Source of the DNA: Escherichia phage vB_EcoM_H12 | DNA: 64,000 bases | Strand: one strand, 5' to 3' | Sequence record: PP952733.1 | Shown here: piece after piece, positions 11,089-41,727 of the stretch | Layout of the letters: each line of letters begins with the position of its first letter | How positions within the stretch are numbered: position 1 is the stretch's first letter | Position numbers and translations under genes: made by a program | The notes under the pieces: generated by a model | Databases searched by the model: none | What the model was told of the DNA's origin: nothing | The model's input: the letters and a program-made list of their open reading frames with translations, nothing else

Positions 11089-11165
11089 CTCTGTTTAGCT
11101 CAGCTTGGTAGAGCGTTCCGTTTGGGGCGGTAAGGCCGGAGGTTCAAGTCCTCCAACAGAGACCA
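11089..11165 (+). tRNA. tRNA-Pro (anticodon UGG)
   Basis: Cloverleaf folded by hand: 7-bp acceptor CTCTGTT/AACAGAG, anticodon loop TTTGGGG, T-arm GGAGG-TTCAAGT-CCTCC, CCA encoded. Confidence 0.85.
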
Positions 11166-11172
11166 AATTAAT

Positions 11173-11250
11173 GTTCCAGTAGACAAAATGGTAAAGTCAC
11201 CACTCTTTCAAAGTGGATATTTGAGGGTTCAAATCCCTTCTGGAACGCCA
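11173..11250 (+). tRNA. tRNA-Glu (anticodon UUC)
   Basis: Acceptor GTTCCAG/CTGGAAC, anticodon loop CTTTCAA, T-loop TTCAAAT, CCA encoded. Confidence 0.8.
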
Positions 11251-11257
11251 GTTTTGA

Positions 11258-11330
11258 CAGAAGACCAATTGCAGCAAACTTAATCTTATTCATCTGACAC
11301 GAAATCGGACAAAGAAGAGATTTGGTCTGG
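11258..11330 (+). ncRNA. Stem-closed RNA-like element A (CAGAAGACCAAT...TTTGGTCTGG)
   Basis: Terminal inverted repeat AGACCAA/TTGGTCT enclosing about 50 nt; conserved CAGCAA next to 5' arm; one of four related elements. Confidence 0.4.
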
Positions 11331-11341
11331 TCATTAAGAAT

Positions 11342-11418
11342 TGCGGGTATAGAGAAAGGGCGTCTCACATGTCTCATTAGCATGGTATCGGCAGGTTCGA
11401 CTCCTGCACCCGCCTCCA
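11342..11418 (+). tRNA. tRNA with anticodon CAU (Met or Ile2 type)
   Basis: Anticodon loop CTCATTA, T-arm GCAGG-TTCGACT-CCTGC, CCA encoded; first acceptor pair mismatched. Confidence 0.75.
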
Positions 11419-11424
11419 AATTTA

Positions 11425-11488
11425 CAGAAGACCGTTTACAGCAATATTTATTAAATTTTTAGCGGAAAAATTGAAAGATACGGTCTGG
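11425..11488 (+). ncRNA. Stem-closed RNA-like element B (CAGAAGACCGTT...ACGGTCTGG)
   Basis: Terminal inverted repeat AGACCGT/ACGGTCT; compensatory changes relative to elements A and C. Confidence 0.4.
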
Positions 11489-11501
11489 TAATACTAAACA
11501 T

Positions 11502-11578
11502 GGTTAGGAAGCACATAAGGTATGTGCGGTCGCCTGTTAAGCGAATGGCACAGGGTTCGAATCCCTGACTAACCGCCA
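11502..11578 (+). tRNA. tRNA-Asn (anticodon GUU)
   Basis: Anticodon loop CTGTTAA, T-arm CAGGG-TTCGAAT-CCCTG, CCA encoded. Confidence 0.8.
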
Positions 11579-11587
11579 AATTTAAAT

Positions 11588-11675
11588 GTGTCGTTATCCC
11601 GTAGATGGTAGCGGTGGGGACTGTAAATCCCTTGTCATTGAGACTCGGTAGGTTCGACTCCTACACGGCACACCA
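11588..11675 (+). tRNA. tRNA-Tyr (anticodon GUA), long variable arm
   Basis: Anticodon loop CTGTAAA, about 14-nt variable arm, T-loop TTCGACT, CCA encoded. Confidence 0.8.
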
Positions 11676-11681
11676 AATAAA

Positions 11682-11759
11682 GGTTATGTAGTTTAATCTG
11701 GTTAAAATACTCCCCTGTCACGGGAGATGATGAGGGTTCAAATCCCTTCGTAACCGCCA
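11682..11759 (+). tRNA. tRNA-Asp (anticodon GUC)
   Basis: Anticodon stem CTCCC/GGGAG with loop CTGTCAC, T-loop TTCAAAT, CCA encoded. Confidence 0.8.
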
Positions 11760-11845
11760 AATTATAATAAGTATTTCAAAATGATGTTTGAGAGGGCTAT
11801 TCAGCCCCTCCCTTAAAGAGTTTTTACGAGTATTCTTTAAAGGAG

Positions 11846-11918
11846 CAGAAGACCAAATTCAGCAAGTTACTTAAAATTTCAAGCCAATTTAATTTTGAAA
11901 AATTTAAAACTTGGTCTG
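11846..11918 (+). ncRNA. Stem-closed RNA-like element C (CAGAAGACCAAA...TTGGTCTG)
   Basis: Terminal inverted repeat AGACCAA/TTGGTCT; conserved CAGCAA after 5' arm. Confidence 0.4.
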
Positions 11919-11932
11919 ACTCAACAAATTTA

Positions 11933-12064
11933 CAGAAGACCGTTTACAGCAAAACTTAAACAATCTATTTCTCCGGTAAAGAAAAGGCGAAGGTTCGATT
12001 CCTTCACTCGGCAGATGTCGAGTTGGTGTAATGGTAGCACTTAAGATGATAAACAACGGTCTGG
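11933..12064 (+). ncRNA. Stem-closed element D with permuted tRNA-like module (Y RNA-like candidate)
   Basis: Closing stem AGACCGTT/AACGGTCT; inside, in order: T-arm GAAGG-TTCGATT-CCTTC (11989-12005), 7-bp hairpin ACTCGGC-AGAT-GTCGAGT (12006-12023), D-arm-like TGGTGTAATGGTAGCAC; no anticodon arm or CCA. Confidence 0.45.
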
Positions 12065-12065
12065 T

Positions 12066-12209
12066 AATTATCTTTGTAGATAAGTTATTAAGCTTACTTG
12101 TGAGTATGCGACCACAAAGGGTGAAAGGGTAAATTCTAGATTTAAACCCAACAACGCACATCGCTACAGACCTTAAGCAAGTCTGGGTAGCTTATCTACA
12201 AAGATAATT
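12066..12209 (+). repeat. 19-bp perfect inverted repeat (AATTATCTTTGTAGATAAG / CTTATCTACAAAGATAATT) enclosing about 105 nt
   Basis: Arms at 12066-12084 and 12191-12209 are exact reverse complements; inner hairpin CAGAC-CTTAAGCAA-GTCTG. Confidence 0.6.
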
Positions 12210-12223
12210 TAATGGAAGTGTAG

Positions 12224-12289
12224 CAGAATGGTGATGCGGCAGACTTTTAATCTGACAGGCGATGGGTTCGAATCCCTCCACTTCTACCA
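12224..12289 (+). tRNA. tRNA-Lys (anticodon UUU)
   Basis: Acceptor GGAAGTG/CACTTCT, anticodon loop CTTTTAA, T-loop TTCGAAT (T-stem has two mismatches), CCA encoded. Confidence 0.7.
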
Positions 12290-12293
12290 ATAT

Positions 12294-12370
12294 GGTTCAG
12301 TCGCAGATAAGGTAATGCAGGGGTCTCATAAGCCCTATGAATGTGGGTTCGATTCCCATCTGAACCTCCA
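12294..12370 (+). tRNA. tRNA-Met (anticodon CAU), second copy
   Basis: Anticodon stem with three consecutive G-C pairs, loop CTCATAA, T-arm GTGGG-TTCGATT-CCCAT, CCA encoded. Confidence 0.75.
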
Positions 12371-12371
12371 A

Positions 12372-12447
12372 GCTGGTATAGTTAAGAAGGTTATAACACT
12401 CCCCTGATAAGGGAACATCGGTGGTTCGATTCCACCTACCAGTACCA
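12372..12447 (+). tRNA. tRNA-Ile (anticodon GAU)
   Basis: Anticodon loop CTGATAA, T-arm GGTGG-TTCGATT-CCACC, CCA encoded. Confidence 0.8.
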
Positions 12448-12462
12448 ATTTCAATAAAGTTG

Positions 12463-12491
12463 TTGACATTGAGATGTGACCACTTTATAGT
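12463..12491 (+). promoter_or_regulatory. Sigma70-like promoter TTGACA-17-TATAGT inside tRNA array
   Basis: TTGACA at 12463-12468, TATAGT at 12486-12491, upstream A-tract. Confidence 0.55.
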
Positions 12492-12783
12492 AACTAAAAT
12501 ACTTCATAATATGTATAATTCAAACACCAATACATGAGCGTTAGACGTAACACAATGTGGGGAAATTTGTTGTACATATTCTGAATAGTTTTCGTTGCGT
12601 AGCGTCTATTTTGCAAATTTAAAATAAATGCAAACGACAATGTTTTTCTGGCAGTAGCTTGATAGGCTAAACACCAGTGAGGTCTTCCAATCCCTCATCA
12701 AAGAATTTGGCGTACTAGCCCACGGTATGATTAATAAGGTGGGCATCTTTAAGTACTTTCTAAGAGAGTCTTTAAAGATTAAT

Positions 12784-12860
12784 GCACCCTTAGTTCAATT
12801 GGATAGAGCAACGGTCTTCTAAATCGTTAGTTACAGGTTCGAATCCTGTAGGGTGTGCCA
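12784..12860 (+). tRNA. tRNA-Arg (anticodon UCU)
   Basis: Acceptor GCACCCT/AGGGTGT, anticodon stem ACGGT/ATCGT with loop CTTCTAA, T-loop TTCGAAT, CCA encoded. Confidence 0.8.
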
Positions 12861-13001
12861 AATAGTTAGCAGATTGCTTAGACGACCTTATCGGGTCTCC
12901 GTGTAAGGAGGTGGTCTGTATCTCATGTTTCCAGAACATGTAAATAATCTGAGAAGGGGCTTTACAGTGTTGCGAAAATACGGTAAGCTTCGAATTATAG
13001 T

Positions 13002-13084
13002 GTGGGACGATGTTAAGACTCTAAGGCATGAGCAACGGCCTCCAAAACCGTTTCAAAGGGGTTCAACTCCTCCGTCCCATGCCA
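13002..13084 (+). tRNA. tRNA-Trp-like (anticodon CCA), atypical expanded D region
   Basis: Acceptor GTGGGAC/GTCCCAT, anticodon loop CTCCAAA, T-arm AGGGG-TTCAACT-CCTCC, CCA encoded; about 26 nt between acceptor and anticodon stem. Confidence 0.45.
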
Positions 13085-13097
13085 AAGTCTTATTAGG

Positions 13098-13185
13098 GGT
13101 AGGTAGCGGCTAATGGCAGCCAAACAGTCTTGAAAACTGTTGCCACTGTAGAGATACGGTGAGGGTTCGACTCCTTTACTTACCG
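13098..13185 (+). tRNA. tRNA-Ser (anticodon UGA), long variable arm
   Basis: Anticodon stem ACAGT/ACTGT with loop CTTGAAA, long variable arm, T-loop TTCGACT; CCA not encoded. Confidence 0.75.
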
Positions 13186-13340
13186 CCTAATAAGATTTAA
13201 AACCAAGCTTCATTCGGATGTTGCTTTGGTATCCCTCGTGTATTGTCGTACACAAGTAAAGCACCTAGTAGGTGTCACGGAGAAGAGATAATATCAAGCT
13301 CTCCAAAGGTTCTAGTCACCGGATTAAACAAGACTATGCA

Positions 13341-13361
13341 AAGACCTATTTAGGTCTTTTT
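13341..13361 (+). terminator. Terminator-like hairpin inside tRNA array
   Basis: AAGACCT-ATTT-AGGTCTT followed by TTT; AT-rich stem so probably weak. Confidence 0.4.
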
Positions 13362-13440
13362 AGAGGGCTTCTAAGGTTATTACAGCTTGTTGTGGAACCT
13401 TGTTGCTTAGGTTCTTAGAAGTTCTCTAAAAAGATTTAAT

Positions 13441-13518
13441 GGGAGATTGACGGTAATTGGTAAACCTACCATCCTTAGAAGTTGGTGTTTGAGGGTTCGA
13501 ATCCCTTGTCTCCTACCA
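13441..13518 (+). tRNA. tRNA with anticodon UAG (leucine-type anticodon) but short variable arm
   Basis: Acceptor GGGAGAT/GTCTCCT, anticodon loop CTTAGAA, 5-nt variable loop, T-arm GAGGG-TTCGAAT-CCCTT, A73, CCA encoded. Confidence 0.7.
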
Positions 13519-13525
13519 AATTAAT

Positions 13526-13601
13526 GCAGGTGTAGCAAAATGGTTATGCGGCTGACTCTTAATCAGTAAGACGATGGGTTCAATTCCCTCCACCTGTACC
13601 A
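13526..13601 (+). tRNA. tRNA-Lys (anticodon CUU)
   Basis: Close paralog of the UUU tRNA at 12224; anticodon loop CTCTTAA; CCA encoded. Confidence 0.75.
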
Positions 13602-13605
13602 AATT

Positions 13606-13681
13606 GGGGTCATAGTTTATATGGTTAAAATTCGAGTTTTGCAAACTTGGGAACTGAGTTCAATTCTCAGTGACTCCACCA
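13606..13681 (+). tRNA. tRNA-Ala (anticodon UGC)
   Basis: Acceptor GGGGTCA/TGACTCC, anticodon loop TTTGCAA, T-arm CTGAG-TTCAATT-CTCAG, CCA encoded. Confidence 0.8.
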
Positions 13682-13687
13682 ATTAGT

Positions 13688-13762
13688 GCATCCATAGTTT
13701 AAACGGGAAAATTACAGTCTTCCAAACTGAGGTTGAGGGTTCGATTCCCTCTGGATGCTCCA
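13688..13762 (+). tRNA. tRNA-Gly (anticodon UCC)
   Basis: Acceptor GCATCCA/TGGATGC, anticodon loop CTTCCAA, T-arm GAGGG-TTCGATT-CCCTC, CCA encoded. Confidence 0.8.
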
Positions 13763-13769
13763 AATTAAT

Positions 13770-13845
13770 GCTCCTATCGTATAATTGGCTATTACGGTTG
13801 CCTTGTAAGCAACTTATCAGGGTTCGAATCCTTGTGGGAGCACCA
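13770..13845 (+). tRNA. tRNA-Thr (anticodon UGU)
   Basis: Acceptor GCTCCTA/TGGGAGC, anticodon stem GTTGC/GCAAC with loop CTTGTAA, T-loop TTCGAAT, CCA encoded. Confidence 0.8.
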
Positions 13846-13850
13846 ATTCA

Positions 13851-13936
13851 GAGGTCAAGTGAAAGACCGCTTTGAGTCAACTGAAGACCGTAACAAATCC
13901 CACGGAGTTGAGTTAGCGGCACAACTTCAGACCTCT
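13851..13936 (+). ncRNA. Structured hairpin element between tRNA-Thr and tRNA-Val
   Basis: 6-bp closing inverted repeat GAGGTC/GACCTC around about 75 nt with nested complementary segments (TCAACT/AGTTGA) and a GAAGACCGT motif; no canonical T-loop. Confidence 0.35.
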
Positions 13937-13941
13937 TTCAT

Positions 13942-14016
13942 ACTCGCTTAGTTTATATGGTAAAACATCACCCTTACAAGATGAAGAAAAAGGTTCAAGC
14001 CCTTTAGTGAGTACCA
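13942..14016 (+). tRNA. tRNA-Val (anticodon UAC)
   Basis: Acceptor ACTCGCT/AGTGAGT, anticodon loop CTTACAA, T-arm AAAGG-TTCAAGC-CCTTT, CCA encoded. Confidence 0.7.
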
Positions 14017-14017
14017 T

Positions 14018-14095
14018 GTTCCAGTATCCCAATTGGCAGAGGATGCAAGCTCAAACCTTGTACTAGTGACGGTTCGAATCCGTCTTGGAACACCA
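14018..14095 (+). tRNA. tRNA with anticodon CAA (leucine-type anticodon) but short variable arm
   Basis: Acceptor GTTCCAG/TTGGAAC, anticodon stem GCAAG/CTTGT with loop CTCAAAC, 6-nt variable loop, T-arm GACGG-TTCGAAT-CCGTC, A73, CCA encoded. Confidence 0.7.
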
Positions 14096-14100
14096 ATTTT

Positions 14101-14176
14101 GCAGGATTAGTTCAAATGGATAGAGCAACAGTCTACGAAGCTGTTAATAGGGGTTCGAATCCCTTATCCTGCGCCA
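14101..14176 (+). tRNA. tRNA-Arg (anticodon ACG)
   Basis: Acceptor GCAGGAT/ATCCTGC, anticodon stem ACAGT/GCTGT with loop CTACGAA, T-loop TTCGAAT, CCA encoded. Confidence 0.8.
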
Positions 14177-14195
14177 ATTTAAAGAGGCTATTTAG

Positions 14196-14753
14196 ATGAG
14201 ATATTTGAAGTATGCTTCATGGATTTTCTTAGCTTTGTTAGAGCCATTTGCAGCAATCTTAGCAGTTATCTTAGCACCTTTTGTAGTTCCATTCTACAGT
14301 GAAAAGAAAGGACACTTACCTTTCGGCTTCAGATGGATGGAAACATATGACAACCCAATTGATGGTGATGAAGGTCATGTTGAACGATGGGCTAAGATTA
14401 GAAAGATTGGTAAGCTTGGTGTCTATATGCAGAGAGTTGGTTGGCTCTGGAGAAACAAAGCTTATAACTTCTCTTACCATGTGTTAGGAAGAGATGTAAA
14501 AGATGTTACTAAGTGGAAAGGTAATATCAATGTAAGTTCTAACCCTGAAGATAATCAGACAGGTTATCTCCTAATGTGGAACAGTAATGCTTGGGGATTA
14601 TTCGCTTTTATCCCATCAATTAAAGTCTTTGGTAAGCAATTCTACTGGAGAATTTATGTTGGATGGAAACTTAAAAGTGTTGTTCCAAAAGAAAGAGCAT
14701 TCTCAAGGGAAAGAGTTATGTTGGCATTCTTTATTCATCCACTAAGAAAGTAA
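14196..14753 (+). CDS. putative membrane protein (185 aa) encoded inside the tRNA array
   Basis: AAAGAGG RBS; N-terminal hydrophobic helix (WIFLALLEPFAAILAVILAPFVVPF); Trp-rich. Confidence 0.55.
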   Translation: MRYLKYASWIFLALLEPFAAILAVILAPFVVPFYSEKKGHLPFGFRWMETYDNPIDGDEGHVERWAKIRKIGKLGVYMQRVGWLWRNKAYNFSYHVLGRDVKDVTKWKGNINVSSNPEDNQTGYLLMWNSNAWGLFAFIPSIKVFGKQFYWRIYVGWKLKSVVPKERAFSRERVMLAFFIHPLRK

Positions 14754-14761
14754 AGATTTAA

Positions 14762-14837
14762 AGGGGATTAGTTTACAAGGTTAAAACCTCGGTCTTTGAA
14801 ATCGAAGAAGTTGGTTCAATTCCAACATCCCCCGCCA
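14762..14837 (+). tRNA. tRNA-Gln (anticodon UUG)
   Basis: Anticodon stem TCGGT/ATCGA with loop CTTTGAA, T-arm GTTGG-TTCAATT-CCAAC, CCA encoded; first acceptor pair mismatched. Confidence 0.75.
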
Positions 14838-14839
14838 AT

Positions 14840-14918
14840 GCTCCATTACTCCAATTGGTAGAGAGGCCAGACTTAAAATCTGTGTTATGTATCGGTTCGA
14901 ATCCGATATGGAGTACCA
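14840..14918 (+). tRNA. tRNA with anticodon UAA (leucine-type anticodon) but short variable arm
   Basis: Acceptor GCTCCAT/ATGGAGT, anticodon loop CTTAAAA, about 7-nt variable loop, T-arm ATCGG-TTCGAAT-CCGAT, A73, CCA encoded. Confidence 0.7.
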
Positions 14919-14923
14919 AATTT

Positions 14924-14999
14924 AGCGGTATAGCATAACTGGCAATGCAGCAGTCTCTGAAGCTGTCTTATTAAGGTTCAAATCCTTATGCCGCTGCCA
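14924..14999 (+). tRNA. tRNA-Gln (anticodon CUG)
   Basis: D-stem GCAT/ATGC, anticodon stem GCAGT/GCTGT with loop CTCTGAA, T-loop TTCAAAT, CCA encoded. Confidence 0.7.
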
Positions 15000-15030
15000 C
15001 TTCTAAGGATTCTTACGAGAGTCCTTAAAT

Positions 15031-15106
15031 GTGGCCTTATCATAAATGGTAATGACCCATGCTGTGAACATGGTCTATACGGGTTCAAATCCCGTAGGTC
15101 ACCCCA
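15031..15106 (+). tRNA. tRNA-His (anticodon GUG)
   Basis: Acceptor GTGGCCT/AGGTCAC, anticodon stem CCATG/CATGG with loop CTGTGAA, T-arm ACGGG-TTCAAAT-CCCGT, CCA encoded. Confidence 0.8.
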
Positions 15107-15111
15107 ATTTA

Positions 15112-15188
15112 TAGTCCAAGTAGCTTATATGGTTAAAGCGCGTGTCTGAAAAACATGAGAAGAGGGTTCAAATCCCACTGGACTACCA
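15112..15188 (+). tRNA. tRNA-Phe (anticodon GAA)
   Basis: Acceptor TAGTCCA/TGGACTA, anticodon loop CTGAAAA, T-loop TTCAAAT. Confidence 0.75.
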
Positions 15189-15204
15189 ATTTCAAAGGTG
15201 CTTA

Positions 15205-15939
15205 ATGAAAGAGATGACAGAACAAGGTAAGGAGATTTTTAATCTCTTAAAAACTGGTAAAGGGTTATCTAACCCCCTTATTACTGGTGCAGCAGTTCTC
15301 GGTGGAACAGTAGCTGCCTCTACATCACTTGTAAGCTCTATTAGCTCTGTAACAGACCCTACAATAAAGGATAAGCTTATTGCTGCTGGACTTACAACAG
15401 TTCTGCTTAACAGCTTTACCACAAGTCTGACAAGCACTACATCAACTACTAAAACACTGACAGATTACGGTCAAAAGTCCATTGATGAGTTTTCATCACG
15501 TATGCAGGTAGCAAAAGGTTATTCTAATGTTATGGGTGCAGCAGGTGAACAAGTTGGCTGTACACCATTTAGTGGTATTATGGGTGTTGCTACAGAGTAC
15601 GGTCAAAAAGCTATTGACACAATTAACAGCACACTAGACGGTGTTAATGATGTATTAAGTGACTTACAAGACGCTATTGACAAAGGTCTTGATACTATTT
15701 CTGATTTAGCTAACCAAGCTGTTAGTAAGATTAATGAAGGTATCTCGAAGATTACAGCTTATGCAGATGAAGTTGTGCAGATGATTGAAGAAGAAGCTGC
15801 CCTTATTGCAGAGTACCTTAAAACAAATATCAATGGGTTCTTAGCAGGTATCTTACCAGACTGGTTTGATGATGCTTGTAAAACTGGTGTAATTGATACT
15901 ATTGCAACACCAGAGATGAAGAACGCATTACAGAAATAA
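15205..15939 (+). CDS. hypothetical Ser/Thr-rich protein (244 aa) inside the tRNA array
   Basis: Start moved from track 15142 to ATG 15205 (AAAGG RBS) so it does not overlap tRNA-Phe; low-complexity S/T segment. Confidence 0.5.
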   Translation: MKEMTEQGKEIFNLLKTGKGLSNPLITGAAVLGGTVAASTSLVSSISSVTDPTIKDKLIAAGLTTVLLNSFTTSLTSTTSTTKTLTDYGQKSIDEFSSRMQVAKGYSNVMGAAGEQVGCTPFSGIMGVATEYGQKAIDTINSTLDGVNDVLSDLQDAIDKGLDTISDLANQAVSKINEGISKITAYADEVVQMIEEEAALIAEYLKTNINGFLAGILPDWFDDACKTGVIDTIATPEMKNALQK

Positions 15940-15941
15940 AT

Positions 15942-16034
15942 GGAAGATTAACCCTAAAAGGTAAGGGAGCAGTTTGCTAAACTGCCAGTAGCTGAGAAAT
16001 CGGTGTACCAGTTCAAGTCTGGTATCTTCCTCCA
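15942..16034 (+). tRNA. tRNA-Ser (anticodon GCU), long variable arm
   Basis: Acceptor GGAAGAT/ATCTTCC, anticodon stem GCAGT/ACTGC with loop TTGCTAA, long variable arm, T-arm ACCAG-TTCAAGT-CTGGT, CCA encoded. Confidence 0.8.
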
Positions 16035-16038
16035 ATTT

Positions 16039-16114
16039 GAATCCGTGACAGAAATGGATATGTACCTGTCTGCAAAACAGGTTTATAAGGGTTCGAGTCC
16101 CTTCGGATTCTCCA
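16039..16114 (+). tRNA. tRNA-Cys (anticodon GCA)
   Basis: Acceptor GAATCCG/CGGATTC, anticodon stem CCTGT/ACAGG with loop CTGCAAA, T-loop TTCGAGT, CCA encoded. Confidence 0.8.
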
Positions 16115-34669: not shown

Positions 34670-35524
34670 ATGTTTGAAAAGATTGATAGTGTTTATTACA
34701 AAACACTTGATGAAAGGACTGTAACACAGTTTAAAGATAAATTTATCTATACAAGTATCTTGAAAGCAATCACTGATGAATTACAAACTCTAGAGGATGT
34801 TTGCTGGCAGATGCACACAGAGAGAAATATCAGGACGTCAGTAGGCCAACAACTTGATAACATTGGCTCACTGATTAAAGTTCCTAGACCTTTAGGTGCA
34901 GATGATGAAACATATAGGGCTATGCTTTATATTCAAATCTTCCTAAGACGCTCTGACACCACCCCAACATTCTTGCAAAAAGCAATTATGACGCTATACG
35001 GTGCAACTTTCTCTCAGATTTTTGAGCATATTACTCCTAAGATTGGTGGTATCGTTATCCGTATCAACACTAGAAAAAGCGTTCTAGATGCTGCATATAC
35101 ACTATCAAAGATTTCTGCAACAACTACTGGCTCCGCTGTTATCTTAAGAGATGTTACTTTAAATGGGACTGCTTGGACACCTGTAGAGGTTGCTGATTCA
35201 TCACTTGCTATTGTTGATGATAAAGAGAACTGGTTTGTAACTGATGCTAACAGGGGTCTTGTCACAAATAACACTGGTGGCTCTCTGGAGTCCAACTTAG
35301 TAGGTAGTCTTGCAGATGCTGGTGTTATTGATGGTTACTTTAGGGTTGACAGAACAGCAAACTCACAGAGTGATGATTATATGACTGTAGATAGGTCCAA
35401 TAATAGTGGCTATTTCATCGTTGGTAAAGAAGCTATTGCAGGTGGTGCATATGGAATCATGGCTGAGGTTGCACAAATTGTCAAAGGCAGAAAAGATAAA
35501 TCACAACAAGAAGGAAATTCTTAA
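34670..35524 (+). CDS. putative baseplate or tail-fiber-associated protein (284 aa)
   Basis: Position upstream of tail fibers. Confidence 0.4.
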
Positions 35525-35826
35525 TGGCAGTTTTAAATTGGTCTACAAATGAAGTAGATACTGATGGTAACCAGTTAAAAGTTTTACCACCACCGGAAGT
35601 TCAAGAGACAGGTCTTTTAAAGGGTGAACCTATGGGTAGACAGTGGTTCAACTATATTATCAACTACCTGCTTAATAAAGTAAACGGCACTGTTGGTGAA
35701 GTTCGCTCATATGCAACTCAGCAACCAGATTTAGTAGCCAATGGCTGGAAACTAATTAAGTCTGAGACAGGGACTGCAACAACAAGTACAAAGAACCTTT
35801 ACACATATGAATATGTAGGAGCTTAA
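35524..35826 (+). CDS. small tail protein (100 aa)
   Basis: Position. Confidence 0.4.
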
Positions 35827-35828
35827 TA

Positions 35829-37004
35829 ATGGCAGTCGGTGAAATTCAAATTAGTGCCTTGCCACAAGCGGCATTACCTGTTGATTTAAGTGATATCTTC
35901 CATCTTAAGCAAGGTGTTGAGGATAAAAGATGTACGCTTGAACAGTTGTTAGCACCTCACGCATCTTTGAGGAATAATCCTCATGGTGTAACCAAATCGC
36001 AAGTGGGTCTTGATAATGTTATTAACTCTCTTCAATTAGTTGCAGCTAATAACTTGTCAGACATTGTGAATGTTGCTGAGGCAAGAGCAAATCTACAAAT
36101 TATGTCGTCAGAGGAAGTGAATAACTTAATTCAGCAACATATTGACGACAAAAGTAACCCACACAATACAACGAAAGCACAGGTCGGTTTAAGTAATGTT
36201 CAGAACTGGACAACATCTAATCTGTACAACGAAGATGCTGATAAGTACGCCACCGCGAGAGCAGTGAATAATTTATACAAAGCTATTCAAGCATCATATC
36301 CAGTAGGGACTATTCATCTATCTGTTAACTCTGCCAACCCATCCACTTACTTGCTTTGTGGAGGTACTTGGGAGTTAGTTTCTAAAGGTAGAGCACTAGT
36401 TGGTTACGATACAGATTCTAGACCTGTTGGTTCAATGTTTGGTTCTCAGACTGTAGCATTAACGAATAATAATTTACCAGCACACACACACTCTATCTAT
36501 CTAACAGGTGGTGGTCATACACACTCTGCAAGTGTATCTATCTCTAGTTTTGATTATGGTTCAAAGAGTACATCAACTTTTGACTACGGTACAAAAACGA
36601 CTAATAGTGCTGGTGCTCATACTCACACGTTTAGTGGTACAACAAGTAATGCTGGTAACCACAACCACAGAGTACCTATGAGGGGTAATGATAGGGGTGG
36701 TACAAATGCTATTACTGCATCTGCTGATGCTGGTGTTGGTAATGCTATGTATACTGATTTAGCTGGTGCTCACACCCATAGCTTCTCAGGCACAACTGCA
36801 TCATCTGGTGCTCATAGCCATACTCTTGCAATTGGTGCTCACAGCCACACTGTTAATATTGGTTCACACAGTCATACGGGCACTGTTACTGTTTCTAGCT
36901 CTGAGCATACACACTCAGGGACATCTGGTTCTGTTGGTGGTGGTCAAGCTTTCAGTGTTGAGCAACCATCTTTTGTAGTATATGTGTGGCAGAGAACAGC
37001 TTAA
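35829..37004 (+). CDS. tail fiber protein with His-rich repeat tip
   Basis: Repeated PHxxTKxQVGLxNV motifs and C-terminal GAHTHxFSGTT / GAHSHT repeats; C-terminus related to 37051..39600. Confidence 0.7.
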   Translation: MAVGEIQISALPQAALPVDLSDIFHLKQGVEDKRCTLEQLLAPHASLRNNPHGVTKSQVGLDNVINSLQLVAANNLSDIVNVAEARANLQIMSSEEVNNLIQQHIDDKSNPHNTTKAQVGLSNVQNWTTSNLYNEDADKYATARAVNNLYKAIQASYPVGTIHLSVNSANPSTYLLCGGTWELVSKGRALVGYDTDSRPVGSMFGSQTVALTNNNLPAHTHSIYLTGGGHTHSASVSISSFDYGSKSTSTFDYGTKTTNSAGAHTHTFSGTTSNAGNHNHRVPMRGNDRGGTNAITASADAGVGNAMYTDLAGAHTHSFSGTTASSGAHSHTLAIGAHSHTVNIGSHSHTGTVTVSSSEHTHSGTSGSVGGGQAFSVEQPSFVVYVWQRTA

Positions 37005-37013
37005 TTTCTTTAC

Positions 37014-37034
37014 AGGGGCTTTGTAGCCCCTTTT
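37014..37034 (+). terminator. Terminator-like hairpin between the two tail fiber genes
   Basis: GGGGCT-TTGT-AGCCCC followed by TTTT. Confidence 0.55.
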
Positions 37035-37050
37035 AAGAGGAAAATTTATA

Positions 37051-39600
37051 ATGGCAGATTACAAATTGAGTCAATTAAACTCAATCGACACAATTCGTTC
37101 AGAAGACCTATTGCACATCAGAGTTAAGAAAAGACCTGAAATGTTGGGTGACGAAGACCGTAGAATGACCTATCAAGACTTCTTAGCTTCCTTCAAACTA
37201 GAAAGGTTTGTTCAGATTGCTGGGAGTACTATGGTTGGGGATTTAGGTATTGTCAAGTTACTTTACGGTGGTAAGGCAGTATTTGACCCAACAGGCTCTT
37301 CTGAGATTACTATTGGGGATATTTTAAAGTCTTTTAAAATTAACTCAAATGGGCTTAAACTCACTATTGCAGATGCCACAAGGTCGGCAACTGTTTATCA
37401 TACTTTGAATAAACCAAGCCCTAATGAACTTGGTATGAGAACTAATGAAGAGAATGATGCAAGATATGCAAGGCTTGCTGTTACAAACACATTCTCTGGG
37501 ACTCAGAACATTCAAGGTGATGCTAACTTACTTCGCCTTAGAAACCGAAATGCAAACAATGCACAATACATTGAAGGTGTAAACCCAGATGGTTCAGCTA
37601 GATGGTGGGTTGGTATTGGTAGCAATGGTTCTGACGAAGTAAAACTGTACAATAACAAATACAACTCAGTCTTGACTGTTGCAAGTAATATCTCTGTTAA
37701 TAAGTCTTTAGCAATCACTGGACAAGTCCAACCTTCAGATTTCTCTAACTTAGATGCTAGATACTTTACTCAGACAGTTGCTAATCAGAGATTTGCACAG
37801 TTAGCTGGTAATAACACTTTTACAGGTGCTAACACATTTAGGACTATGAGTGTTATTTCAAATGCTGCTGCTATCACACTGCAATGTGCATCAGCAAACG
37901 AATCCCTGTATCTACTTGCAAAAGATTATGAAGGTGGAAACTTATGGTATCTCGGTAAAGGTAGTTCAGGTGCTGGTGTAACTATCTACAACTATACCAC
38001 TAACACCTCTTTGGTCTTAGATGCTGCTGGAGTATCAGCAAATAAAAATGTCAGAATCACTGGACAAGTTCAACCTTCAGATTGGGCTAACATTGACTCT
38101 AGATATATTCCGGCAGCAACATTAAGTACAATTGCAAGAACTAATGCAAGGAATACTTTTAATGGTGTACAGACAGTTGTTACGGATAATGAAGGTCTGA
38201 TTGTTAAAAACTCTACTCAGAATAGACCATTATATATTCGTGGTGTGGACACTACTAATGTATCAAGATGGTGGATTGGTGTTGGTGGTGCTGATACGAA
38301 TGATGTTACCCTAAATAACAGTTATTCTGGAACCCAATTGGTTCTCGGAAATACAACATCATACATTAACAAAACATTGACTATTGCTGGACAAGTTCAA
38401 CCTTCAGATTTTTCTAACTTAGATGCTAGATACTTTACGCAAAGTGCTAGTGATAGCAGATACCTAAGAATCAGAAGCACTAGCTTCAATGTGGGAAACA
38501 CTGATAAGTGGGCTAAAATTGCCACTGTTGTGATGCCACAATCAGCATCAACTGCTGTTATTGAGGTATTTGGTGGGTCAGGTTTTAATATTAATACACC
38601 ACAACAAGCAGGTAAATGTGAAATTGTTCTGCGAACTTCAAATAACAATCCAAAGGGCTTAAATGTTGTTGCTTGGAGAACATCAGACAACACCATTGTC
38701 AGGGATATTGGTTATGTGAATACTTCTGGAGACACCTATGATATTTACTATCTTGCTGGTACGTATCAAAACAGCACAACGACAAGGGTTCAGTCTTCTA
38801 GTAATGCAAGTGTACAGTTGTTTGAAGTCCCACAGACATTTGATGATGCTCCACAAGGTATTGTGAAGGGTACAATTGCAAAATACTACACAAGTTTGCA
38901 AAAACCAACCCCTTCAGAAATTGGTGCATACACTAAAGCAGAGACTGACCAGAAGATTGCAGAAGCAATTAGTGACTCTACAGACCTGAATAAAATCTAT
39001 CCAGTAGGTATTGTGACGTGGTTTAATAGTAATGTTAACCCTAATACAGCACTTCCTGGTCTAACTTGGACGTACCTGAATAATGGTGTTGGCAGAACTA
39101 TTAGAATTGCAGCAGCAAATGGTTCAGATGTTGCTACAACTGGTGGTTCAGACTCTGTAACGTTATCTGTTGGTAACTTGCCTTCACACACGCATAGTTT
39201 CTCTGCTACTACTTCATCATTTGATTATGGTACTAAGACTTCTAGTACAACTGGTAACCATAACCATAACAGAGGGACTATGGAGATTACTGGTACAGTA
39301 GGTTACTTTAGAAGTGACTCTAGCAGCTTCTACACAGCAAGTGGTGCATTTACACTTGGTAGCTCAACTGCTTCTAAAGGCTTTACTGGTTCTCACTTCA
39401 CTTATGGTATCCCTGCTAACTTCAATGCGTCAAGAACTTGGTCTGGTGTAACTAACACAACTGGTAACCACAGCCACACTGTTGGTATTGGTGCTCACAG
39501 CCACACAGTTAGTGGTAACACAGGTGGTACTGGTTCTGGTTCAGCATTTAGTGTTACTAACCAGTTCTACAAGTTAATGGCTTGGGTGAGAACTGCTTAA
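37051..39600 (+). CDS. large tail fiber protein (849 aa) with His-rich repeat tip
   Basis: Repeated QVQPSD(F/W)(S/A)N(L/I)D(A/S)RY modules; C-terminal LPSHTHSFS and GNHSHTVGIGAHSHT repeats. Confidence 0.7.
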   Translation: MADYKLSQLNSIDTIRSEDLLHIRVKKRPEMLGDEDRRMTYQDFLASFKLERFVQIAGSTMVGDLGIVKLLYGGKAVFDPTGSSEITIGDILKSFKINSNGLKLTIADATRSATVYHTLNKPSPNELGMRTNEENDARYARLAVTNTFSGTQNIQGDANLLRLRNRNANNAQYIEGVNPDGSARWWVGIGSNGSDEVKLYNNKYNSVLTVASNISVNKSLAITGQVQPSDFSNLDARYFTQTVANQRFAQLAGNNTFTGANTFRTMSVISNAAAITLQCASANESLYLLAKDYEGGNLWYLGKGSSGAGVTIYNYTTNTSLVLDAAGVSANKNVRITGQVQPSDWANIDSRYIPAATLSTIARTNARNTFNGVQTVVTDNEGLIVKNSTQNRPLYIRGVDTTNVSRWWIGVGGADTNDVTLNNSYSGTQLVLGNTTSYINKTLTIAGQVQPSDFSNLDARYFTQSASDSRYLRIRSTSFNVGNTDKWAKIATVVMPQSASTAVIEVFGGSGFNINTPQQAGKCEIVLRTSNNNPKGLNVVAWRTSDNTIVRDIGYVNTSGDTYDIYYLAGTYQNSTTTRVQSSSNASVQLFEVPQTFDDAPQGIVKGTIAKYYTSLQKPTPSEIGAYTKAETDQKIAEAISDSTDLNKIYPVGIVTWFNSNVNPNTALPGLTWTYLNNGVGRTIRIAAANGSDVATTGGSDSVTLSVGNLPSHTHSFSATTSSFDYGTKTSSTTGNHNHNRGTMEITGTVGYFRSDSSSFYTASGAFTLGSSTASKGFTGSHFTYGIPANFNASRTWSGVTNTTGNHSHTVGIGAHSHTVSGNTGGTGSGSAFSVTNQFYKLMAWVRTA

Positions 39601-39679: not shown

Positions 39680-39877
39680 ATGCCTACAATCCTAGCAATT
39701 CTTCTAAAAAATCTAGGTAGCTTCTTCTGGAAACTCATTTTATCCCTTCTAAGTGAATACATGATTGAGAAAGTGTTCTTTAAGCTTGCAAGATATCTTG
39801 CGAGTAAGACAGATACACCTATTGATGATGAGTTCGTAGATAACTTAGAAAAAGCTTTTAAGGGGGAGAATAAATGA
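39680..39877 (+). CDS. small membrane protein (65 aa), holin-like candidate
   Basis: N-terminal hydrophobic helix; last genes of late operon. Confidence 0.35.
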   Translation: MPTILAILLKNLGSFFWKLILSLLSEYMIEKVFFKLARYLASKTDTPIDDEFVDNLEKAFKGENK

Positions 39878-40245
39878 AGTGGCTAGAGGAAGCTTTTAAA
39901 AATAATATTGGTGCAATTGTAGTTGGTATTTTTAGTGTTATTGGGATGTATACCACCATGCAAGTTTCGGATGGTAAGCAAGAAGTGTCTGTCACAACAA
40001 AGTTACAGCAGCTAGATAATTATAGCAAATCTAATTACTCAGCTATTCGTGATTTACAGTCTGACATGAGACTGATTCAGCTAGGGATGGAGAACCAGAA
40101 AGTTCAGTTAGAGAATGTTAAGGGTGAGAACGCAAAACTTACTAAAACTCTGGACAAATTCTCTGACAGTGTGAACAATCTGGCTCAATCAGTATCAGCC
40201 TTGCAAGCTATTACTGAAAAGAACACAAAGAATACTGAAAAATAA
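39874..40245 (+). CDS. membrane-anchored coiled-coil protein (123 aa)
   Basis: N-terminal hydrophobic helix (IGAIVVGIFSVIGMY) then helical region. Confidence 0.4.
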   Translation: MKWLEEAFKNNIGAIVVGIFSVIGMYTTMQVSDGKQEVSVTTKLQQLDNYSKSNYSAIRDLQSDMRLIQLGMENQKVQLENVKGENAKLTKTLDKFSDSVNNLAQSVSALQAITEKNTKNTEK

Positions 40246-40252
40246 AATTTAA

Positions 40253-40277
40253 GGCTCCTTTTTACGGGAGCCTTTTT
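40253..40277. terminator. Terminator hairpin at convergent junction
   Basis: GGCTCC-loop-GGAGCC followed by TTTTT on plus strand and A-rich tract upstream; between convergent late and thyA blocks. Confidence 0.6.
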
Positions 40278-41181: not shown

Positions 41182-41727
41182 TCAAAAGTGTCCTTTTACT
41201 TGTGGTGTATAGATATCAAAAGTTGCTTTTCCATCTGCTGATGGTCTTGACTGAATCTTAGCGAAAATTTTACGGTCATGCAACTTGTCAAAGAAGTTCT
41301 CAAAAGGTAGATATACAGTTGCCTCTTCATTAACTTCATGGAAAACTGTATGGAACACTACATCAGCATACGGTAAAGCACTGACAAGGATACCTGAACC
41401 ACCAATTACGAAAACATCTTCTTCAATATTACTGTCAAGATACTTTAAAAATGCTCCAAAAGAGTCTTGATGAGCTTTAGCAAACATAACATCATCTTTA
41501 CTAAAATCTATACCGTAATAAGGCACAGAGTTTGTCAAGATAAGGTTTTCACGTTCAGGTAAAGGGTTACTTCCCAGAGTCTTGAAAGTCTCATTACCCA
41601 TTACTACTAAGTTGTCTTTAGTGAGTCTCTTAAACTCTTGCATATCCTCTTTATGTCGAGGCCACGGCATACCAGTTGGAGTACCAAACTCACCATTTTC
41701 ACCACTTGCAAAGATTAATTTAATCAT
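41182..41727 (-). CDS. dihydrofolate reductase
   Basis: N-terminal IKLIFASGENGEFGTPTGMPWP and GNETF motif; AAGGA RBS; adjacent to thyA. Confidence 0.75.
   Translation of the reverse strand: MIKLIFASGENGEFGTPTGMPWPRHKEDMQEFKRLTKDNLVVMGNETFKTLGSNPLPERENLILTNSVPYYGIDFSKDDVMFAKAHQDSFGAFLKYLDSNIEEDVFVIGGSGILVSALPYADVVFHTVFHEVNEEATVYLPFENFFDKLHDRKIFAKIQSRPSADGKATFDIYTPQVKGHF

Follow-up and report, generated by a model that had tools for sequence, protein, structure and literature searches.

Short and long tail fibers in Escherichia phage vB_EcoM_H12 and their probable T4 gp37-type tips

A fiber pair of a described type

In phage Bas63, cryogenic electron microscopy (cryo-EM) has resolved a short tail fiber (STF) of 430 Å and a long tail fiber (LTF) of 630 Å, both of which possess a structurally conserved baseplate-binding domain and end in a gp37-like tip of collar, needle and head that carries HxH (His-x-His) motifs (PMC12609058). 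The long fiber contains gp34-like beta-helix repeats, in five such domains (PMC12609058). Work on orthologs places both fibers in the virion, with the STF attached to wedge 2 of the baseplate and the LTF to a gp9-like platform (PMC12609058, PMC11821841, PMC4690856). In phage VpaE1, gp37-like C-termini common to both fibers were described in 2015; the N-termini were reported as conserved, the middle and distal parts as variable, and mass spectrometry of the virion found both proteins (PMC4690856). The receptor reported for Felix O1-like phages is lipopolysaccharide (LPS) (PMC4690856, PMC11821841). Here, we analyse two open reading frames (ORFs), p1 and p2, in a 64,000-nucleotide stretch of Escherichia phage vB_EcoM_H12 (record PP952733.1; the whole stretch is referred to below as the window). 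They very probably encode the STF and the LTF of a wV8-like Felixounavirus, each with a T4 gp37-type HxH receptor-binding tip. That the stretch encodes two distinct fibers with a common tip had been noticed in a sequence-only reading, made without database searches; the observation is correct, and agrees with the cryo-EM of the orthologous Bas63 fibers (PMC12609058), but it was already described. The shared-tip, two-fiber architecture is known from VpaE1 in 2015 and from the cryo-EM of Sf14 and Bas63 in 2025, and what goes beyond the published work is confined to variant-specific HxH counts, an enlarged LTF head and mapped boundaries of recombination.

Both ORFs lie exactly at the coordinates that the sequence-only reading had given them (Table 1). 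Over the fiber region the nucleotide sequence is 96% identical to ZX4221, KEP3 and wV8, which belong to the wV8-like Felixounavirus phages (Ounavirinae myophages) of E. coli O157:H7. The curated record of wV8 shows the same gene order as the window and labels the orthologs of p1 and p2 (gp82 and gp83) alike as 'tail fiber protein'. At the level of protein families, phrog_2097 (tail fiber) covers all of p1 (E=1e-138, profile positions 205-600 of 644) and phrog_4277 (tail fiber) covers p2 at full length (E=0). In public data, homologs of 60-100% identity are found on contigs of 80-90 kb, and one entry (P0121) is 100% identical to p2.

The position of the two genes fits their family assignment. 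They stand directly downstream of the genes for wedge 2, wedge 1 and the LTF platform, which is the Felixounavirus position for STF and LTF, and a 489-aa Baseplate_J protein is encoded upstream. Because the two genes immediately upstream correspond to gp024 and gp025 in the Bas63 baseplate structure (PDB 9NDY), p1 occupies the gp26 (STF) position and p2 the gp27 (LTF) position. The same order of wedge 2, wedge 1, LTF platform, STF and LTF is found for Bas63 (JohannRWettstein) gp26/gp27, Sf14 gp52/gp53, wV8 gp82/gp83, Felix O1 NP_944921/NP_944923 and VpaE1 gp74/gp75. The Felixounavirus relatives also match p1 and p2 in length (391 aa and about 790-850 aa) and have the same N-terminal baseplate-binding domain, gp37-like tips and gp34-like LTF units.

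The tip common to both fibers

The case for a common tip begins with the C-termini themselves. As the sequence-only reading had stated, both proteins end in HxH-rich modules followed by a W-x-RTA tail, which is WQRTA in p1 and WVRTA in p2. Regular-expression searches locate the modules that it quoted at aa 313 of p1 (GAHTHSFSGTT), at aa 336 of p1 and aa 814 of p2 (GAHSHTV) and at aa 805 of p2 (GNHSHTVGIGAHSHTV). There are nine HxH motifs in p1, in two blocks (aa 219, 230, 264, 278 and aa 315, 329, 338, 347, 360), and four in p2, again in two blocks (aa 713, 737 and aa 807, 816). The reading had made the significance of the C-terminal similarity the point on which it could fail, and that similarity is significant: residues 157-342 of p1 align with residues 650-820 of p2 at 32% identity over 194 columns (composition-adjusted BLASTP, E=6e-16). 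Both tips are rich in Gly, Ser, Thr and His and contain short internal repeats, and one might thus ask whether their likeness is a composition artefact of low-complexity sequence rather than homology. We regard the probability of this as negligible. In composition-preserving shuffles (1000 per comparison), none attained the observed local alignment score, be it over the complete tips (z=15) or over the collar, which is poor in His (z=9.2), the needle and head (z=8.7) and the C-terminal tail (z=11.8) taken singly; the similarity is thus not an artefact of His/Gly/Ser composition. The two proteins, moreover, independently match the same solved structure, that of the T4 gp37 tip (2XGF).

In T4 gp37, a collar domain (D10, residues 811-881 and 1010-1026) is followed by a stem (882-931 and 960-1009) with the receptor-binding tip (932-959) at its turn, and seven iron ions are bound, one per HxH layer of the trimer (PMC6957217). 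The seven HxH motifs of the T4 needle equal the number of ions, and the chain ends in IVRLA. Both fibers of the window resemble this arrangement in having a collar, a two-block HxH stem, a small tip at the turn and a C-terminus predicted to run back to the collar. Residues 145-362 of p1 match residues 17-227 of 2XGF (E=1.9e-26), and residues 707-828 of p2 match residues 101-218 (E=1e-6), which bears out the suggestion of the sequence-only reading that such repeats typify metal-coordinating fiber tips: HxH repeats are the hallmark of the metal-coordinating needle of the T4 gp37 type. BLASTP identity to T4 gp37 is 48% for p1 and 40% for p2. In a three-way alignment of p1, p2 and T4 gp37, the collar opens with YP(V/I)G in all three; SSFDYGTK, GxHSH..IGAH(S/T)HTV and an R-x-A ending are further common landmarks. 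The W-x-RTA tail is thus homologous to the strand by which the T4 chain rejoins its collar. In the AlphaFold2 (AF2) model of p1 this return segment has a predicted local distance difference test (pLDDT) score of 86-90 and forms a strand at residues 381-389.

T4 gp37 differs from these proteins in several respects. It is a 1026-aa protein and one of four LTF subunits, whereas each fiber here is a single gene product, and T4 binds OmpC or LPS whereas Felix O1-like phages are reported to bind LPS only. The numbers of HxH motifs differ as well, with 3+4 motifs in the descending and ascending blocks of T4 gp37, 4+5 around a 34-aa head in the STF and 2+2 around a 67-aa head in the LTF. The STF needle therefore has two extra HxH layers relative to T4, including a duplicated FDYG unit. 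In the LTF, 67 residues without any histidine separate the two HxH blocks, and two segments within them align to HxH motifs of T4: GTVGYF (39286-39303, aa 746-751) to GEHSHY, and NFNASRTW (39418-39441, aa 790-797) to GNHSHTF, an indication that this type of LTF has lost two metal sites close to the head. The fibers of Bas63 differ from those of the window in the same feature and in head size, with seven HxH motifs in its STF against nine here and six in its LTF against four here.

Three observations weigh against this reading of the two proteins. The p2 collar scores 24.7 bits in the Pfam family Gp10_C, just below the cut-off of 27, compared with 66.9 bits for the collar of p1. The AF2 models, which were full-length monomers built from family alignments (pLDDT 70 for p1 and 55 for p2), are poor at the tips, with pLDDT <50 for residues 613-849 of p2 and for the p1 head. 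Finally, T4 gp37 depends on gp38 and gp57A as chaperones, and a homolog of T4 gp38 was not found in the window (tblastn, best E 0.16); a dedicated gp38 gene immediately downstream is an accessory feature of T4 and not of the fold. The authors of the Sf14 study likewise found no fiber chaperone homologs (PMC11821841). At E<=0.1, neither p1 nor p2 has a Pfam match to the auto-cleaving intramolecular chaperone domain (Peptidase_S74/IMC).

In the place of T4 gp38 and the holin gene t, two ORFs for conserved families of unknown function lie directly downstream of the LTF gene, at 39680-39877 (65 aa, phrog_402) and 39874-40245 (123 aa, phrog_4038). No homology to gp38 was found for them. Both products begin with a moderately hydrophobic segment, and that of 123 aa also ends in a coiled-coil-like tail; a role in fiber assembly or in lysis is conceivable.

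The name of the collar family, 'Baseplate structural protein Gp10, C-terminal domain', invites a different reading of p1, namely that this protein of 391 aa is no fiber and belongs to the baseplate as a gp10-like wedge or adaptor. We consider this very improbable. Only the collar of about 120 aa matches, residues 140-240 of p1 aligning to residues 439-529 of gp10, and the full gp10 architecture is not seen; the collar fold itself is common to gp10, gp11, gp12 and gp37 (PMC6957217). The match to the gp37 needle is both stronger and longer (E=1.9e-26), p1 continues beyond its collar with nine HxH motifs and a hypervariable head, and the Bas63 ortholog is a 430-Å fiber in cryo-EM (PMC12609058). 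Mu-like invertible fiber tips were also considered, and were rejected because there are no inverted repeats within 35829-39600 and both genes are complete and on the same strand; no search was made for an invertase.

With p1 and p2 taken as two fibers with gp37-type tips, it can be asked whether both of them bind receptors. The head of each is its most variable segment across relatives, as expected for receptor-contacting surfaces, and the segment between the HxH blocks would contact the host surface, most likely LPS core or O-antigen sugars as in other Felix O1-like phages. An alternative is that only one fiber is the true receptor binder, while the other tip has no receptor specificity of its own and mainly helps with structure or triggering, for example by docking to the sheath when retracted or by sensing for the baseplate trigger. 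Both Bas63 fibers are folded against the sheath (PMC12609058), it is chiefly the LTF, gp75, that sets VpaE1 apart from its relatives (PMC4690856), and the Felixounavirus literature assigns a receptor to neither fiber individually. Even so, we think this alternative unlikely, given that no other part of the STF varies as much as its head (for most homologs, 15-35% identity, compared with 60-96% in the flanking segments), a pattern which fits diversification driven by the host and not a conserved docking surface.

Exchange between phages and the origin of the two tips

The sequence-only reading had also taken the shared tip on distinct shafts as a sign of module exchange. Exchange is real, but it occurs between phages and within each gene, and the common tip is not evidence that the STF and LTF genes exchanged sequence with one another. 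We compared both proteins segment by segment with 70 STF and 120 LTF homologs. Conservation in the STF family is 80-96% in the N-terminus and shaft, about 80% in the collar and 60-77% in the needle, in contrast to the head described above. The segments of the LTF fall into discrete identity classes which combine independently of one another: 95 or 66% for the degenerate first shaft unit (Unit 0), 100 or ~60% for Unit 1, 100, 80 or 45% for Unit 2, 98, 84, 70 or 28% for the mid-domain, and 97-99, 81, 75 or ~20% for the head. The 28% class of the mid-domain consists of LTFs of ~790 aa (P0170, P0174, P0183 and others) in which a shorter cassette, PF12604 (gp37_C), replaces aa ~472-615 of p2, while the flanks of the cassette are 97-100% identical. 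In P0170 the breakpoints lie at DSRY (~aa 471) and at KPTPS-IG-YTKAETDQKI (~aa 619). Sf14 gp53, at 792 aa as opposed to the 849 aa of p2, probably belongs to this class. The ~20% class of the head has six HxH motifs and a head of 31-45 aa, as against the 67 aa of p2.

Comparison with wV8 at the nucleotide level gives the same picture, with 93-99% identity throughout the fiber genes except at two spots. The first is a sharp block at nt ~37830-38045, of 63-65% identity, which corresponds to the core of repeat unit 2 and has conserved linkers on both sides; the second is a dip in the LTF head at nt ~39340-39430 (80% over a 150-nt window). It is from the independent identity classes, the cassette swap and these local drops that module exchange between phages within each gene follows, and in these comparisons the exchanged modules are the LTF repeat-unit cores, a mid-domain cassette and the heads, with boundaries at conserved linkers. 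For the adhesin genes of T-even phages, Tetart and co-workers reportedly proposed in 1998 that recombination takes place at conserved His-box motifs. A local mosaic patch also occurs outside the fibers, in the dihydrofolate reductase (DHFR) gene (41182-41727, - strand), where identity to wV8 is 79-81% at 41250-41550 against a background of 93-99%. Among the relatives of the STF, P0074-P0080 (35-38% identity) carry an additional precomputed PF12788 on the N-terminal side.

How the same kind of tip came to stand on two different shafts is a separate matter. It could be envisaged that the STF and LTF genes of one genome recently exchanged sequence or underwent gene conversion, as the collar, HxH needle and W-x-RTA tail are common to both tips and their coding sequences share a 60-nt stretch at 75% identity and a run of ~20 identical nucleotides that encodes IGAHSHT. 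Several lines of evidence make this highly improbable. The protein sequences of the two tips have an identity of only 32%, and the p1 needle is nearer to T4 gp37 (48% identity to residues 893-1011, 98 bits) than to p2 (67 bits). No hybrid was seen among the STF and LTF homologs examined, and each family keeps its own collar and its own C-terminal signature, which is LMAWVRTA in every complete LTF homolog listed and, among Felixounavirus-like STF homologs, (V/L)YVWxR(T/V)A with few exceptions. On these grounds the two tips are old paralogs. The tip was also found by tblastn in lambdoid, Erwinia, Klebsiella and Serratia phages, and the HxH needle segment of E. coli prophage tail fibers is 54-57% identical over ~30% of p1. 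Lambdoid side tail fibers (Stf) and other enterobacterial phage fibers with 'Phage tail fibre repeat' or collar domains differ from the STF and LTF here in their N-terminal anchors, and they usually have a tail-fiber-assembly chaperone encoded downstream.

The number of HxH motifs varies from 4 to 11 among relatives. In the STF gene, three tandem 27-nt units at 36795-36876 encode HxH motifs, and in the LTF gene two 27-nt units encode the HxH pair of the ascending strand. It is conceivable, although we would put it forward only tentatively, that the wV8-type LTF tip is a remodelled gp37 tip which lost two head-proximal metal sites as its head grew to 67 aa, so that phages infecting O157 would carry with them a structurally distinct knob for receptor binding, and that needle length in Felixounavirus more generally (4 to 11 HxH layers) shifts by way of the 27-nt units.

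Layout of the fibers and a model for their assembly and diversity

The segments of both fibers, their context genes and the intergenic hairpin are collected in Table 1.

Table 1. Coordinates of the two fiber genes, their segments and adjacent features in the window.
Feature	Coordinates	Strand	Basis or remark
Wedge protein 1 (gp024) match, context gene	34670-35524		Full-length match to PDB 9NDY Bas63 baseplate chain, E=6e-157
LTF-platform protein (T4 gp9-like long-fiber attachment point), context gene	35524..35826	+	PDB 9NDY chain S 'LTF platform protein (gp025)', full length, E=1.9e-57; phrog_4141, full length
STF gene, p1, 391 aa	35829..37004	+	Ortholog of Bas63 gp26, Sf14 gp52 (also 391 aa), wV8 gp82
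STF N-terminal baseplate-binding region, aa 1-45	35829..35963	+	89-98% conserved across Felixounavirus-like homologs; faint LTF-like motif
STF shaft, aa 46-153, two NPHxxTKxQVGL repeats and helical segments	35964..36287	+	Regular expression; AF2 helices 66-106, 143-156
STF collar, aa 154-218, gp10/gp11/gp12/gp37 D10-type fold	36288..36482	+	
STF needle, descending strand, aa 219-280, 4 HxH, duplicated FDYG(S/T)K unit	36483..36668	+	Regular expression; 2XGF alignment
STF head, aa 281-314, hypervariable, putative receptor-contacting tip	36669..36770	+	Position equals T4 gp37 932-959; pLDDT <50
STF needle, ascending strand, aa 315-362, 5 HxH	36771..36914	+	Regular expression; 27-nt tandem repeat; 48% identity to T4 gp37 893-1011
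STF C-terminal return segment, aa 363-391, ...AFSV...VWQRTA, predicted to rejoin collar	36915..37001	+	z=11.8 vs p2 tail; T4 D10 1010-1026
Hairpin GGGGCT-TTGT-AGCCCC and TTTT, then LTF ribosome-binding site AAGAGG	37015..37034	+	Read from sequence; wV8 equivalent annotated as rho-independent terminator
LTF gene, p2, 849 aa	37051..39600	+	Ortholog of Bas63 gp27, wV8 gp83
LTF N-terminal baseplate-binding region, aa 1-60	37051..37230	+	93-100% conserved in 120 homologs; faint STF-like motif
LTF shaft, degenerate unit aa 60-141, clear units aa 142-240, 241-354, 355-463	37228..38439	+	Pfam gp37_trimer; MAFFT alignment
LTF mid-domain, aa ~472-612, beta-rich globular cassette	38464..38886	+	AF2 pLDDT 70-87; swapped as unit in ~790-aa relatives
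LTF collar, aa 647-712	38989..39186	+	Pfam Gp10_C 24.7 bits; z=9.2 vs p1 collar; conservation of 96-100% in every homolog listed
LTF needle, descending strand, aa 713-739, 2 HxH and FDYGTK	39187..39267	+	Regular expression; 2XGF alignment
LTF head region, aa 740-806, 67 aa, variable, putative receptor-contacting tip	39268..39468	+	Identity classes; pLDDT <50
LTF ascending needle (aa 807-818, 2 HxH) and C-terminal return segment ...AFSV...AWVRTA	39469..39597	+	Regular expression; DNA repeats

The claim that the N-terminal and central regions of the two proteins differ stands for the shafts, which are unrelated (z=0.9), and less fully for the first ~45 aa, where a weak common pattern, D-hh-H-h-[KR]...G-x-E-D-[KR]-R-x-T, can be made out in p1 and p2 (z=3.9; probability 43% in hhalign). 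In the STF shaft, the two copies of NPHxxTKxQVGL lie at aa 50-61 (35976-36011) and aa 110-121 (36156-36191), and because this segment matches many unrelated PHROG families of tail, collar-fiber and structural proteins, it looks like a widespread building block of fibers. Histidine makes up 6.1% of the STF, with 24 codons (11 CAT and 13 CAC). A cluster of 26 tRNA genes, including tRNA-His(GTG), is located at 11089-16114 on the + strand.

For the LTF shaft, four QVQPSDxxNxDxRY modules had been counted in the sequence-only reading; there are in fact three exact copies (p2 aa 225, 339 and 448) and one degenerate junction, NKPSPNELGMRTNEENDARY (aa ~120-139), which aligns with them. The three clear units, of ~100-114 aa, each end in GQVQPSDxxNxDxRY and are beta-rich, with pLDDT 70-90 in the AF2 model. 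They were defined by a motif-anchored MAFFT alignment and by Pfam, which finds gp37_trimer in three stretches (E=1e-76); BLASTP of p2 against itself gave no off-diagonal matches. A 76-nt junction repeat is present in the DNA at 37697, 38039 and 38366. Foldseek searches with the monomer model returned tailspike-type N-terminal domains, T7 gp17 (2e-4) and T4 gp34 (3e-3), with low TM-scores, which agrees with the gp34-like repeats described for the Bas63 LTF (PMC12609058). The shaft resembles the T4 gp34 rod, the C-terminal region of T7 gp17 and gp37_trimer in its beta-rich units of ~100 aa joined by short linkers, whereas the GQVQPSDxxNxDxRY linker is specific to the family of p2. The mid-domain, which may be the counterpart of the fifth gp34-like domain of the Bas63-type fiber, is connected by a helical linker to the collar, for which PF21939 is precomputed on most LTF homologs.

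The hairpin between the two genes was missed by a consensus terminator scan because it is followed by only four T residues. It is probably a leaky intrinsic terminator, and may set the ratio of STF to LTF expression. A strong, bidirectional terminator-like hairpin (AAGGCTCC...GGAGCCTT) is found at 40251-40274, between the end of the structural operon and the convergent genes for thymidylate synthase and DHFR.

Taking the homology to T4 gp37 and to the Bas63 fibers as a guide, we propose the following model. Each fiber would be a homotrimer held on the baseplate through its conserved N-terminal domain, with the STF bound to the wedge and the LTF to the gp9-like platform protein encoded just upstream. 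The LTF shaft would be a gp34/gp37-like chain of beta-repeats joined by GQVQPSD..N.D.RY linkers and followed by the globular mid-domain. In both tips, the chain would pass from the collar down the needle, turn in the small head and run up again to the collar, which would be completed by the final W-x-RTA strand. Within each HxH layer, three chains would supply six histidines to a single axial metal ion, by homology with the Fe2+ of T4, for a predicted total of up to nine sites in the STF and four in the LTF; as in T4 gp37, these sites may both rigidify the needle and be required for it to fold. The two fibers would have different specificities and divide the labour between them. Diversity arises as recombination between related phages at conserved linkers swaps repeat cores, the mid-domain and heads, and gain or loss of 27-nt HxH-coding units probably alters the motif count.

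There is nothing conceptually new in the shared tip or in the exchange of modules. Tail-fiber tips determine phage host range, however, and Felix O1- and wV8-like phages serve in the typing and biocontrol of Salmonella and E. coli O157. If needle length does shift through the 27-nt units, their gain and loss would be a simple way of tuning the reach and stiffness of a fiber. For host-range engineering, it is useful to know that the needles of both fibers are very probably of the gp37 type and have a short, hypervariable head at the end, and that repeat cores, the mid-domain and the heads are exchanged at conserved linkers.

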